From Candidatus Uhrbacteria bacterium GW2011_GWC2_41_11 (GTDB lineage: Bacteria > Patescibacteriota > Patescibacteriia > UBA9934 > GWF2-40-263): a stretch of 64,000 bases of DNA. Both the position numbers and the translations under genes were made by a program. Shown here one piece after another: positions 11,824 through 16,087 of this stretch (positions are counted from its first letter, which is position 1; each line of letters opens with the position of its first letter). The stretch covers positions 11,089-75,088 of the forward strand of contig LCAH01000007.1 of NCBI GenBank assembly GCA_000996355.1, read 5' to 3'. A model generated the notes under the pieces. The model ran no database searches, was not told the DNA's origin, and was given only the letters and a program-made list of their open reading frames with translations.

Positions 11824-13551
11824 ATGACTCTTGATCCTAAGATGTATCTGTCAATTTCTGTGCCTGAAAATTTGAGGAATGGACTCATTGCTATGATGGT
11901 TCGTCATTTCCTCTTGAAACAGGTCATCGGAAACGAATACGTAGCATCTCAAGCCGCACGTGAAATTATGACCGCTTTGTACGGTTTTCATTCAACGTTC
12001 GCTCAGATTCAAAGCACGTCAAAAGAAGATTTTGAAAAAGCAACTCAAAAAGCCGGTATTTCTGGTATCCCTGTGGCTGGTTTCAAAGAACTCCCGGACG
12101 TGTGGCATCTGGTGAATCCTGAAACTCCGATGTGTTCCCATTGTGGGGATGTACCGCTTTCGAATAATGGATCCTTCATTCAGAATCTGGTTGTTGGGTC
12201 TAAGTGTCCCTTCTGTCATGTGGGAGAGTTTGTTCTCATTCCTATGACTTTGAAAAAGATTACTTGGACTGACGGCAGACTTGTGGATCCGTCTATGAGA
12301 GAAGATTATCAGTTCATCACAGGAGAACAAATTCCTCTGGATGATGACTTGATTATGGATTGGGTCAATGTTCGTATTCAGCCAGATCTTAAACAAGCAT
12401 TGGTAGAAGCACAGGTTTCCATATATGGATTTCTTGCTTATGCCAACTTGGTTCGCAACGCGTTCAGCGGTCGCAAGGAATCCGAGGAAGGATTGTGCAA
12501 GGCTGTTGGTTGGTTGCTTGAGGATCCGGAAGTATGCAACCTGCCGGTTTCTATTATGGCTGAAGAGGCTATGAAAGCCCGGCAGTATGTGGAAGAAAGA
12601 GAAGTGACGAACATGCCACGGATTTTGAAGTCCACGAGCGTTATCCTTCCTGTATCTTCTGTTGTGGCAACTGTTGTGAATCCGTTTGCTCCGATGAATG
12701 AACGAGATCCAACATCCTATATACGGACTCGTCTACTCGCATCTGGAGATATGGCTGATATTTATCTTGGCCATCTCAACGATCCATTCGCGGACAAACA
12801 GGAGACAGTGATCATCAAGGTGTACCGAGATGCAGAAGACACTGGGATGGCTCGTAACGAGGCACAAACTTTGGAGCGTTTATACGGAAGTGCTGAGACT
12901 GAGAAAGCTGAAGGTTTCCTTCATGGATTTCCCAAGGTTCTTGCATACGGACCAGTAACGGATTCTGACGGAGTTGTGCACGAATGTAATGTGTTTTCGT
13001 ACACTCCTGGCTACATGACTTTGGAAGAAGTTTGTCGTGACGATCATCGGGTCGATATTCGAACAGGTGTGTGGATGTTCAACCGTATTCTCGAAATGCT
13101 TGGTTGGATTCACCAGCACGGCATTATTCTTGGATCGGTTCTTCCATCCCATATCCTTGCCCAGCTTGATGAACACTGGATCGTTTTTCTTGGATGGCCC
13201 TATGCAGTTCATGAGCCAGAGAAAACCGGTGCACGCATTCTCGCGGTCAGTCAGGCGTACGAGTCTTTTTATCCGGAAAGTGTGTTTCGAAAGAAACCGC
13301 CGTCTCCGGCAATGGATATCTCGATGGCTGCGCGGTGTGTGATCCAGGTTGTAGGTGGAGATCCGATCACGGGGAAATTGCCTCGTGGAGAAGATCCGCT
13401 ATTTGAGACGATTTTGAAGACAGCTGCCGGTCTTCATGGTTCTGTTCCGTTCAAGAACGCTTGGCAGTTGCATGAGGCGTTCGGAGAAGTTGCGCGTTCC
13501 GTTTTAGGGCCGCGTAAGTTTCATCCATCCCGGGTGTTCAAAAAAACCTGA
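11824..13551 (+). CDS. zinc-ribbon plus protein-kinase-like (predicted pseudokinase) domain protein
   Basis: N-terminal CSHCG...CPFCH zinc ribbon. C-terminal half has a kinase-like layout: glycine-rich segment LASGDMADIY, beta3 VIIKV, alphaC Glu, and subdomain IX DISMAARCVIQVVGG. The catalytic-loop HRD/N and the DFG Asp are replaced (HGIILGSVLPSH, FLGW). Confidence 0.55.
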   Translation: MTLDPKMYLSISVPENLRNGLIAMMVRHFLLKQVIGNEYVASQAAREIMTALYGFHSTFAQIQSTSKEDFEKATQKAGISGIPVAGFKELPDVWHLVNPETPMCSHCGDVPLSNNGSFIQNLVVGSKCPFCHVGEFVLIPMTLKKITWTDGRLVDPSMREDYQFITGEQIPLDDDLIMDWVNVRIQPDLKQALVEAQVSIYGFLAYANLVRNAFSGRKESEEGLCKAVGWLLEDPEVCNLPVSIMAEEAMKARQYVEEREVTNMPRILKSTSVILPVSSVVATVVNPFAPMNERDPTSYIRTRLLASGDMADIYLGHLNDPFADKQETVIIKVYRDAEDTGMARNEAQTLERLYGSAETEKAEGFLHGFPKVLAYGPVTDSDGVVHECNVFSYTPGYMTLEEVCRDDHRVDIRTGVWMFNRILEMLGWIHQHGIILGSVLPSHILAQLDEHWIVFLGWPYAVHEPEKTGARILAVSQAYESFYPESVFRKKPPSPAMDISMAARCVIQVVGGDPITGKLPRGEDPLFETILKTAAGLHGSVPFKNAWQLHEAFGEVARSVLGPRKFHPSRVFKKT

Positions 13552-13569
13552 AAAAAAGGAGAGATTGAA

Positions 13570-14580
13570 ATGGCAAAAGGATGGAATACATCGACCCATC
13601 AAGAGGTTGAGAAGAAGATGCAGCAGGTCAAGGAAACAGGCGGAAGTGTGCCAAATGATGGGACAAATCCATACCTGGTTCATCCGCTTATGGATCCTTT
13701 GAAGATCAAGAGTGGCATAAGGGAAAGCTGTGATAGTGCGGAGCAGCTTTTATCGCTTGCCATTATTTTTCTCATGGATGTGAGTGGTTCCATGGGGTTT
13801 GTTCCTGAACAACTCAGAACTCGCTATCTTTGTGAGCTCATGAAGTTTTTGCTTGGCGGGAAACTGGTTGTGGATCCACAGATCATGTTCGCCGCATTTG
13901 CGGACGTTGCAGATCGGTGCTTCTTGCAGGTTGGACAGTTCGAACTCGGAACTGAAATGCACGGGGATCTTTCTCGTTTGCGTATTGGTGGTGGCGGAGG
14001 AAGTGCAATGGCGCACGAAGCGCCGGAATATGCTCTCTATTGGGCAGCGACCCATACCAAGATTGATTGCTTCGAAAAGCGAAGAAAAAAAGGAATTCTC
14101 GTCATAACGACCGATGAAATGCCGAATGATAAACTCAAGAAAGAGTATGTCAGGCGTTTTATTGGAGATGGATTAGAAAACGACTTCACGATCGAACAGG
14201 TCATTGCACTTGTCCGACAGAAGTACGACATTTTCTGTCTGTACACCCATACAGGTTCGTATGGCAGCATGGACAAAGAGATCCGAGCCAGGTGGGTGGA
14301 GATCCTCGGATCCGAATATGTTTTCGACTTTTACCAGTCTGAAGATATTTGTGCTCTGGTCGGATCCATTATTGGATTGCGAGAGGAAATGGTGAATAAT
14401 CTAGATGATCTCCGTAATCGTCTCCGTGGTCTTGAGACTTCGGAGGAAACCATTACTCGGGTGTTGCGGACGGTTTATGGATACGCGACTCTTCTTGGAA
14501 GAGGTCAGGTCAATGGGGTGACCCAGAAGGCTGACGCTCCCGTTGAGAAATCGAAAACAACCGGCAATCGTCGGTTGTGA
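13570..14580 (+). CDS. von Willebrand factor A (VWA) domain protein with MIDAS motif
   Basis: LAIIFLMDVSGSMG is a DxSxS MIDAS in the beta1 position of a VWA fold. 336 aa. Starts 19 nt after the previous gene. Confidence 0.7.
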   Translation: MAKGWNTSTHQEVEKKMQQVKETGGSVPNDGTNPYLVHPLMDPLKIKSGIRESCDSAEQLLSLAIIFLMDVSGSMGFVPEQLRTRYLCELMKFLLGGKLVVDPQIMFAAFADVADRCFLQVGQFELGTEMHGDLSRLRIGGGGGSAMAHEAPEYALYWAATHTKIDCFEKRRKKGILVITTDEMPNDKLKKEYVRRFIGDGLENDFTIEQVIALVRQKYDIFCLYTHTGSYGSMDKEIRARWVEILGSEYVFDFYQSEDICALVGSIIGLREEMVNNLDDLRNRLRGLETSEETITRVLRTVYGYATLLGRGQVNGVTQKADAPVEKSKTTGNRRL

Positions 14581-14653
14581 TTCGCAGGTAAAAACATGAG
14601 GAGGCCTGCATACTCGCAGGTCTCCTTTTTACATCTTTTATATTGGAGGAATC

Positions 14654-16087
14654 ATGAACGATTTAGAGTTTGGTCGAACATCCTACCTGATTCGCGATTT
14701 GATATTTGGAGATAGTGGAAAGGGAACTATCGGAGAGTTTCTCACATGGTGGCTTGATCAATTCGCGCCAATTTGGTCAAAGGTTCATACAGTCATTCGG
14801 ACCGAGGGTGGTCATCAGGCCATACACAACAATATCCTTCCCGATGGACGACATCATGGATTTTCCCAGTTTGGGTCGGGAAGTCTCACGTCTCCGATTT
14901 GGACACACCATGCAAAGGGAATGATGGTCGAGCCACTGCACGCACTTGACGAGGGAAAGGATTTGCAGCATTTGGGCGTGCGGGATATCTTCGGCCGTTT
15001 GACTGTGAGTCGCGATATCCGAATAGTGACGCCGTTTCAACAGGCAGCCAACCGTCTTCGCGAATATGCTCGAGGAGTCGGACGGCACGGAAGTTGCGGA
15101 AAAGGGATTGGTGAAACTGCATCTGATGCACTTGCGATCGGAACCGATGCTCTTTATGCAAGAGATCTGATGGATTCTGCAATCCTTCGGGAAAAGTTGT
15201 CTCAGATTCAGGCATACAAGCTGGCTCAGCTCGCAGATCTGATATATCGATTTGGAGATGACAAAGCAATCTCGGCAGAGATCGACTGGCTCACAAATAC
15301 GGCAGCTTCATCGATTCTCGTCGCGTATCTTGGCGAGTTCGTCGAACGCGTGAAGATCGTGGAGAATGCACACATTGGTGGAATTCTTTCCAGGCCGGGT
15401 TCGGTGATTTTTGAGGGAGCGCAAGGAGTTCTCATTGATGAGTGGCGCGGGTTTCACCCGTACACGACATGGAGTACCTGTACGTTTGACAACGCGCTCG
15501 AACTTCTCCGCGAACACCAGTATGACGGCAGGATTGTCCGGATCGGAGTTGTCCGCGCGTATGCAACACGACACGGTGCCGGACCATTTATGACAGAAGA
15601 TCCATTTCTTACCAATGCACTTCCGGACACATATAACGTGACGGATGTTTGGCAACAGACGTTCCGTGTCGGCTGGTTCGATGCTGTGGCTGCTCGATAC
15701 GCAATTGCAGCATGTGGTCAGGTAGATGCATTGGCTGTCACTTGTCTTGATCGAATGCGTGATTTATCTCAGTGGCTCATCTGCACCGGATATGAATTAT
15801 CTGAAGATGATTCGAATGCGGCAAAGTTTTTTGAACTGGATCCGCAAAATCCGAGGATTGCGCGTAATATTCGGCTTGGACCTCACAAAGATCTCGTTTA
15901 TCAAGAGACCTTGACTGAGCAGTTGAAGCGTGTGAAGCCGATATATGAAGTCTCTGCCAATGCAGCAGACTTTGGCCAGCGTGCAGAGCAGCATCTTGCA
16001 CGAATCGAATCTGAACTCGGCGTGCCGGTCGCTATCACATCCTACGGTCCAACCGTTCTGGACAAGCGAATGGTACGCCCCGTTTAA
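14654..16087 (+). CDS. adenylosuccinate synthetase (PurA)-like ligase, divergent
   Basis: Collinear PurA motifs. GDSGKG (PurA GDEGKG), GGHQAIH (GGHNAGH), VIFEGAQGVLID (FEGAQGTLLD), GVVRAYATRHGAGPFMTE (KAYSTRVGAGPFPTE), GVPVAITSYGP (GVPIDIISTGP). The Asp-binding TTGRRRR box is replaced by TDVWQQTFR. Confidence 0.75.
   Translation: MNDLEFGRTSYLIRDLIFGDSGKGTIGEFLTWWLDQFAPIWSKVHTVIRTEGGHQAIHNNILPDGRHHGFSQFGSGSLTSPIWTHHAKGMMVEPLHALDEGKDLQHLGVRDIFGRLTVSRDIRIVTPFQQAANRLREYARGVGRHGSCGKGIGETASDALAIGTDALYARDLMDSAILREKLSQIQAYKLAQLADLIYRFGDDKAISAEIDWLTNTAASSILVAYLGEFVERVKIVENAHIGGILSRPGSVIFEGAQGVLIDEWRGFHPYTTWSTCTFDNALELLREHQYDGRIVRIGVVRAYATRHGAGPFMTEDPFLTNALPDTYNVTDVWQQTFRVGWFDAVAARYAIAACGQVDALAVTCLDRMRDLSQWLICTGYELSEDDSNAAKFFELDPQNPRIARNIRLGPHKDLVYQETLTEQLKRVKPIYEVSANAADFGQRAEQHLARIESELGVPVAITSYGPTVLDKRMVRPV

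Follow-up and report, generated by a model that had tools for sequence, protein, structure and literature searches.

The stretch of Candidatus Uhrbacteria bacterium GW2011_GWC2_41_11 analysed here, 64,000 nt of contig LCAH01000007.1 (positions 11,089 to 75,088) and referred to below as the window, carries a cassette of three co-directional genes at 11824 to 16087, here called A, B, and C. These encode a Zn-ribbon pseudokinase, a VWA protein with a MIDAS motif, and a divergent PurA-like enzyme, as a preliminary description of this DNA had proposed and as the open reading frames (ORFs), profile matches, and AF2 models bear out. That description had also suggested homologue neighbourhoods as the test of whether the trio is a conserved unit, and it is kept together in about 150 independent loci. 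B and C are the invariant core, A is a frequent third member, and a regulator is lineage-specific. The interpretation favoured here from comparison of the sequences, held with about equal confidence and doubt, is that C would be a GTP-dependent PurA-type ligase that uses a nucleophile other than aspartate, with the VWA protein B as its obligate partner and A as an adaptor or regulator.

By BLASTP, orthologues of A, B, and C are present in this order in six loci from different phyla (Binatia, an unclassified metagenome-assembled genome, a 3-Mb contig, Massilia, Planobispora, and Polyangiaceae). Relatives of B were found in at least 579 bacterial species in a scan of species-representative genomes, and gene orders were scored with hidden Markov models (HMMs) in the best 80 of the B-seeded loci. 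B and C are adjacent in 74 of the 80: N-A-B-C in 43, A-B-C in 20, N-B-C in 6, and B-C in 5, where N is an NrtR-type Nudix regulator, added in 52 of the B-seeded genome loci; A was scored in 65 loci. There are no further conserved neighbour genes in the genome or viral loci, beyond synteny within a genus or phage lineage. Elsewhere, in the majority of genomes, B directly adjoins C or overlaps it. The proteins of the window are closest to bacterial copies rather than to viral ones, and there is an exact protein match in Candidatus Uhrbacteria GW2011_GWF2_41_16.

The same cassette is found in phages. Of 324 B relatives found in a scan of IMG/VR, the best 80 were taken for a viral census, and 78 of these 80 loci have B and C together (A-B-C in 47, B-C in 28, and N-B-C-A in 3). 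The GC content of the viral contigs carrying B runs from 0.26 to 0.70, and 34 of the 80 are at least 100 kb, 13 of them at least 200 kb. Among cultured phages, B is in 201 records of Mycobacterium cluster C (Bxz1-type) phages, 10 of Rhizobium phages, and 6 of Vibrio phages, in which the PurA-like gene is annotated as "PurA-like" or "2-aminooxy adenylosuccinate synthetase". In the Bxz1-type phage MoMoMixon, gp256, a "Ser/Thr kinase", is a J-domain joined to A, gp257 is B, gp258 is 88 aa, and gp259 is C; in Vibrio phage Va1 the B-C pair adjoins nrdD/nrdG. The linear megaplasmids of Rhodococcus have the order A-B-C-NUDIX. A, B, and C of the window match the phage families phrog_3043 ("kinase"), phrog_2971 (unknown function), and phrog_1211 at E = 4e-21, 3e-35, and 2e-68, respectively, and their order on one strand is that of these phage families. 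The distribution across phyla and phages shows the module as a whole to be mobile on an evolutionary timescale. In the literature no functional study of the cassette was found, only mentions in genome descriptions, according to which Bxz1-type phages carry an adenylosuccinate synthase homologue (PMC2771037; PMC9476963).

The preliminary description favoured a nucleotide-centred signalling or conflict system, with defence as a role to consider. As anti-phage defence or abortive infection, the VWA/pseudokinase pair would sense and the PurA-like effector would consume or convert purine nucleotides. The distribution across phyla is indeed patchy, the cassette is on Rhodococcus megaplasmids and has a dedicated ligand-sensing regulator, and in some large genomes the neighbours are conflict-like (AAA_15/21 ATPase, STAND NTPase, patatin, PIN, T6SS immunity genes, and integrase). 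Among the PADLOC-DB v2 models, A has weak similarity to those of the PD-T4-6 kinase (E = 3e-4), but B and C have no match. Essentially all Bxz1-type lytic mycobacteriophages and many viral contigs of 100–400 kb carry the cassette, and within Streptomyces and Actinoplanes its chromosomal setting is syntenic and conserved, unlike that of a variable island. There is no toxic effector domain, and in the window the block is flanked by murG, murD, and other housekeeping genes. No observation made here points to defence as such, the cassette being at least as typical of phages, including the lytic Bxz1-type, as of bacteria, and this explanation is considered unlikely. A nucleotide-centred, conflict-related module is plausible, which might just as well serve the phage.

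The evidence for altered chemistry comes from C, a 477 aa paralogue in the PurA family of GTP-dependent ligases (14654 to 16087, + strand). It matches Adenylsucc_synt (PF00709) at E = 1.5e-56, and scores 150.7 and 131.2 bits against the NCBIfam PurA equivalogs NF002223 and TIGR00184, which have cut-offs of 402 and 395.55. The score against the PurZ model NF038379 is 25.2 bits, with a cut-off of 300. Since C is far below the cut-offs for both PurA and PurZ, it is not an ordinary purA. PurZ, the succino-amino-deoxyadenylate synthase of Z-genome phages, resembles C in that it is a PurA paralogue carried by phages and its substrate is altered. Aspartate is still used by PurZ. That C is itself a PurZ is ruled out by the score.

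Residues of 126 cellular and 76 viral members of the C family were mapped onto the numbering of E. coli PurA (structures including 1ADE and 1CG0). In both sets G12, D13, K16, H41, Q224, T239, D333, and S414 are kept, such that C shares with PurA the fold, the GTP P-loop GDxGKG, Asp13, His41, Gln224, Thr239, and the guanine-specifying Asp333. In its own numbering, C of the window conserves G19-D20-x-G-K23-G, in a P-loop reading GDSGKGT (14708–14728, + strand), and H58; Q257 and H307 (15572–15574, + strand) are marked alongside H58. The aspartate loop TTGRRRR of PurA is DVWQQTFR in the window, part of a remodelled loop DVWQQTFRVG (15644–15673, + strand), where the L-aspartate ligands Thr300, Thr301, Arg303, and Arg305 are replaced by V, W, Q, and F. 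A TCLD motif follows at 15740–15751 (+ strand). In the cellular sequences the replacements relative to PurA are N38Q, T129C, V273H, T301W, G302Q, and R305F/M. V273H is present in 76 of 76 viral sequences, with an aromatic-Gln in the aspartate loop, replacing T300/T301, and a hydrophobic residue (Phe, Met, or Leu) for R305. Across the family, W301, Q302, and F/M305 are invariant or close to it. Of the IMP 5'-phosphate ligands, Asn38 has become Gln, Thr129 has become Cys, and the Arg143' position is variable, the arginine of PurA being lost, while Thr239 is kept. These replacements are family-specific and conserved across the cellular and viral copies. The retained residues indicate that the machinery for phosphotransfer and purine-lactam activation is kept in C, whereas its aspartate site has been lost and its 5'-phosphate site has changed. 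C also differs from PurA in its constant VWA-gene neighbour and in not having a purine-operon setting.

It is barely credible, given these data, that C is a normal purA doing the housekeeping of a reduced genome and that A and B are neighbours unrelated to it. The PF00709 match is as expected of such a gene, as are the name "adenylosuccinate synthetase" in the public record and the fact that there is no second purA within the 64-kb window. However, every aspartate-binding residue is lost, the scores are far under the equivalog cut-offs, and the subfamily occurs on phages and accessory megaplasmids, always adjoining B. Taken together, these points effectively refute this explanation. The preliminary description had likewise taken C for a PurA-family enzyme with an altered pocket and not an ordinary purA, in agreement with the sub-cut-off scores and the replaced aspartate loop.

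In public records the C subfamily is systematically named "adenylosuccinate synthetase", with a purine-biosynthesis GO term in a Rhodococcus record. The label is probably wrong.

The remodelled pocket could also be read in terms of nucleotide-pool repair or counter-defence, of benefit to phages and later domesticated by bacteria, in which C would re-aminate altered purine nucleotides (of the IMP, ITP, and dITP types) with ammonia or a small amine, bypassing PurB, with B and A doing no more than regulating or localising it. The bulky Trp/Phe that fills the aspartate pocket would fit a small nucleophile, and the association with phages is strong, close to Pnk, NrdD/NrdG, exonuclease, and ligase genes. 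The NrtR-type domains of the regulator are confirmed as well, and characterised members of that type sense ADP-ribose. Yet this would leave unexplained both the obligatory VWA/MIDAS partner, with its conserved N-terminal arm, and the usual attachment of a pseudokinase carrying a J-domain or Zn-ribbon, and the 5'-phosphate ligands N38, T129, and R143 are also altered in C. Such a repair function seems rather unlikely.

B of the window is a VWA protein of 336 aa (13570 to 14580, + strand). Its AF2 model (pLDDT 88.9) has the VWA/integrin-I fold, with integrin beta, SpaC, and the VWA domain of NorD among the top matches. The sole Pfam signal is a weak match to DUF444 at the MIDAS, of 13.7 bits where the cut-off is 27. 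Invariant in the family are the MIDAS D-x-S/T-G-S (D70, G73, and S74, present in the window as D70-V-S-G-S74 at 13777–13791, + strand), an LQVGQFE strand (13924–13944, + strand), a Gly-rich loop, and a GDE strand; the window copy has T-D-E at 14110–14118 (+ strand). The sequence M-G-x-x-x-[WYF]-[SDN] is near-universal at the N-terminus of bacterial and viral B copies. Of the proteins that match this N-terminal motif, 73 of 89 in the viral loci and 69 of 73 in the bacterial loci are B, making the motif essentially B-specific, and other nearby proteins have it only at about chance frequency across all of the loci.

Some phage copies of B contain inteins. A canonical intein of 255 aa (Cys1 ... 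SSN/Cys+1) interrupts the B homologue gp248 of Mycobacterium phage ET08 (locus L171, 2501–4285), and there are likewise B inteins in phages Nappy, LifeSavor, Lukilu, JPickles, Audrick, and StubbySaigey. The insertion point is between GRKGY and IFIGDE, adjoining the invariant MIDAS-related GDE strand. Since homing inteins tend to choose positions critical for function, this one marks the GDE-strand site of B as important.

Three other observations were made on B. Small ORFs of 61–67 aa that start MGxxx[FY]S are present about 100–300 nt upstream of B in low-GC viral contigs (L119, L134–L136, and L114). B is tandemly duplicated, as A-B-B'-C, in Polyangiaceae and Polyangium loci (L008, L013, L022, and L023). 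On a 1.1-kb JGI contig, a protein of 325 aa (P0123) is 99% identical to B of the window over 40% of the length of B and has a transposase-type HTH (PF13565); an IS element may have disrupted B in this variant of the population.

The intact MIDAS and the near-universal, free N-terminal arm of B (Met-Gly-x3-aromatic-Ser) point to a direct complex between B and C, and the Met-Gly motif makes the N-terminus of B itself a candidate substrate of C. A more specific proposal is that C is a protein-directed PurA: once a 6-oxopurine nucleotide had been activated with GTP, the attacking amine would be the free alpha-amino group of the N-terminal glycine of B after removal of Met, giving a covalent N6-linked adenylate-protein conjugate. 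The adaptor in this "N-terminal purinylation" would be the pseudokinase, by way of its J-domain or Zn-ribbon. The proposal in this precise form is judged distinctly unlikely.

The pairing of B with C is reminiscent of MoxR/VWA, NorQ-NorD, CbbQ-CbbO, and CobS-CobT, in which a protein of P-loop NTPase fold has a VWA/MIDAS protein as its obligate partner, and the VWA domain of NorD is one of the best structural matches of B. If the cassette were a chaperone or assembly module of this type (MoxR/VWA, NorQ-NorD, or CobS-CobT), C would be a GTP switch, or a metal handler through Cys129/His273, B would dock an acidic client by its MIDAS, and the J-domain of A would recruit DnaK. J-domains are indeed frequent on A, and the former substrate pocket of C has an invariant Cys and His. 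The NTPase-fold partner is, however, a PurA-type ligase, not an AAA+ ring, so that the resemblance is in pairing logic only. C keeps the purine-lactam activation residues D13, H41, Q224, and T239 at or near 100%, for which a GTPase switch would have no need, and there is no conserved client gene nearby. A chaperone role is accordingly quite improbable.

A of the window (11824 to 13551, + strand) encodes a long-form pseudokinase of 575 aa, with an N-terminal helical/Zn-ribbon region and a C-terminal domain of eukaryotic protein kinase (ePK) fold, and has no Pfam match. A profile of seven orthologues matches the Ser/Thr kinases CK2alpha and PknA at E of about 1e-10, and the AF2 model (pLDDT 91.5) superposes on the ePK fold of PknA/PknB/VRK1. 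The kinase-like domain (aa 296–570; 12709 to 13533, + strand) retains VAIK Lys332 and alphaC Glu346. The catalytic loop, at 13123–13158 (+ strand), reads IILGSVLPSHIL, with LGS in place of HRD and His443 in place of the catalytic-loop Asn, and the DFG position reads LGW (13189–13197, + strand).

A word-index homology search with A found nothing. An exhaustive HMMER search found relatives in 1,123 cluster representatives at E <= 1e-10, and residues were counted in 150 of these. The HRD Asp is absent from 148 of the 150, the family motif being H-G-A, and from 52 of 52 viral copies. Among the representatives, 86% have His in place of the catalytic-loop Asn, and DFG has become Asp/Gly-Trp, while K332 (94%), E346 (97%), H451 (98%), and D498 (99%) are kept. 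The loss of kinase catalytic residues reported in the preliminary description is thus seen family-wide for the catalytic Asp. By its sequence A is a catalytically dead protein of ePK fold, not an active kinase.

The N-terminal part of A varies between lineages. In the window it has a Zn-ribbon, CSHC...CPFC (C104, C107, C128, and C131; 12133 to 12216, + strand), the cysteines of which are conserved in 96–100% of 27 long-form relatives. A J-domain with HPD is present in at least 63 of the 150 representatives and a Zn-ribbon in 35, which is short in some other lineages; the commoner J-domain includes the "kinase" of the Bxz1-type phages. No gene fusions joining A to B or C were found. One protein (P0320) has an apparently active Ser/Thr kinase (HRDLKPSN and DFG) fused upstream of an A-type pseudokinase, and another (P0335) has an A-type domain followed by a C-terminal region that resembles a peptidoglycan-binding domain.

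The adjacent kinase-fold and VWA genes had led to a comparison with TerY-P, in which the VWA protein TerY is found with a Ser/Thr kinase and PP2C. As a TerY-P-like triad minus its phosphatase, the cassette would need a functioning kinase, but the catalytic Asp is lost across the A family, no PP2C gene is present in about 160 loci, B has no PADLOC match, and the third gene is PurA-like. The analogy proves to be superficial, and descent from such a triad is very improbable; since no system model was matched, apart from the weak kinase similarity of A, TerY-P and every other PADLOC system are ruled out as the identity of the cassette. The order of kinase-like, VWA, and third gene is also that of PrkA/YeaG, YeaH (DUF444, VWA), and YcgB/SpoVR. 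However, the DUF444 match of B is sub-threshold, and the cassette has neither an AAA+ PrkA domain nor a SpoVR. With 13.7 bits against 27 for DUF444 and no match to PrkA or SpoVR, this system is ruled out. The cassette fails the tests for PurA, PurZ, TerY-P, PrkA-YeaH-SpoVR, and PADLOC systems, and is accordingly rated as a new kind of system, so far uncharacterised and assembled from known folds. Its newness rests on absence of evidence in the libraries searched, and the window copy is a somewhat atypical member.

Under the favoured interpretation, a PurA-type ligase with the VWA protein as obligate partner, C would transfer phosphate from GTP onto the 6-oxo (lactam) oxygen of a purine nucleotide, whereupon this phosphate would be displaced by an amine. 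L-aspartate would no longer be taken and adenylosuccinate would not be made, the carboxylate-binding Thr/Arg having given way to an aromatic-Gln-...-Phe/Met motif and an invariant His. The nucleophile or target would most likely be supplied by B. A would be a non-catalytic adaptor or regulator, of which the J-domain forms may link the complex to Hsp70, and the Zn-ribbon forms, as in the window, to a different partner. The reaction would yield an adenine-nucleotide derivative substituted at N6, free or attached to protein, which would serve nucleotide-centred phage-host physiology, not housekeeping purine synthesis.

Several points weigh against this interpretation. The substrate, the nucleophile, and the product of C are all inferred, and the invariant Cys129 and His273 could support some other chemistry, for example one that involves bound metal or a thiol intermediate. 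Of the 74 genome loci in which B and C are adjacent, 11 lack A, as do 28 of the 80 viral loci, which means that A cannot be essential to the core chemistry. Canonical ATP binding by A is made less likely by the acidic Gly-rich loop of its family (n = 150), G-D-x-x-D. The window copies of A and B are themselves exceptional. A is more degenerate here than in the family, with L436 for the family His and G457 for Asp, and this atypical copy may have diverged in function. B begins with MAKGW in place of the MG motif, and has a strong Shine-Dalgarno sequence (AAAGGAGAG) 7 nt upstream of its start. Between B and C there is a hairpin followed by a U-run, terminator- or attenuator-like (14598 to 14632, + strand; 12-bp core stem at 14598–14627, 10 bp by eye at 14600–14625), with a dG of -23.9 kcal/mol and a z of -6.3, none of 200 shuffles being equally stable.

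Where it is present, N has NUDIX and NrtR_WHD domains, and the Nudix box is intact in about half of the N proteins. A palindrome, TTCTC[AG]-N5-[CT]GAGAA, often in two overlapping copies, is found 20–100 nt before N in at least 25 of 55 loci (including L007, L026, L031, L044, L048, L055, L065, L071–L076, and L083–L086) and is likely to be the operator of the cassette regulator. N resembles NrtR-family regulators in its domains and its upstream palindrome, but its putative target is the cassette, not the NAD genes. Characterised NrtR-type regulators sense ADP-ribose. There is no N-type gene in the window.

ORF calls in the window confirm the coordinates of A, B, and C, all on the + strand, and give intergenic distances of 18 nt (A-B) and 73 nt (B-C), rather than the 19 and 74 nt first reported. 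A candidate promoter upstream of A at 11584 to 11611 (+ strand; TTGACA-16-TATACT with a TG extension, 11/12 matches) is sigma-70-like by consensus match only, as is the terminator-like hairpin directly past the stop codon of C (16109 to 16133, + strand). The B-C hairpin and U-run are followed by a weak promoter-like site ahead of C (14628–14655). One operon, as had been suggested from the layout, is likely, yet because of these features it is not certain for C in this genome. Attenuation within the operon, or expression of C at a different level, may be the role of this spacer, and C is likely to be co-transcribed with A and B, perhaps with modulation.

The block had also been described as acquired, GC-richer than its surroundings, and placed after tRNA-Lys. 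The tRNA-Lys gene (9689–9763) is upstream, but 2 kb away with two ORFs between, no att-like direct repeat was found flanking the block, and the only Rfam element at 9–19 kb of the window is the tRNA. The GC contents of A, B, and C (0.47–0.50) are above the mean for window ORFs (0.44, SD 0.048), yet with z of 0.6–1.3, and 0.4–0.9 for GC3, they are within about 1 SD and the genes are no compositional outliers. An integrative island at tRNA-Lys is ruled out by the lack of an att-like repeat and the unexceptional GC and GC3, and the evidence for recent acquisition in this genome is weak.

Just downstream of the cassette, an ORF of 216 aa (16980–17630, + strand) matches the Translin family (Pfam, E = 5.6e-18), which to our knowledge is uncommon in bacteria.

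The cassette is a case of a fold from central metabolism, that of PurA, re-tooled and tied to a VWA partner and a dead kinase, and is found in at least 579 bacterial species, in candidate-phylum bacteria, on megaplasmids, and in many large phages, where its parts have been labelled only "adenylosuccinate synthetase", "kinase", and "hypothetical protein". The probable systematic mis-annotation of the C subfamily inflates the apparent capacity for purine synthesis in reduced genomes and phages, and could mislead metabolic reconstructions of bacteria of the candidate phyla radiation. Bxz1-type mycobacteriophages, Massilia, and Rhodococcus are tractable systems for experiment. The identity of the product of C would probably reveal a new nucleotide derivative or protein-nucleotide modification of relevance to phage-host biology, and N-terminal purinylation, if true, would be a new kind of protein-nucleotide modification in phages and bacteria.

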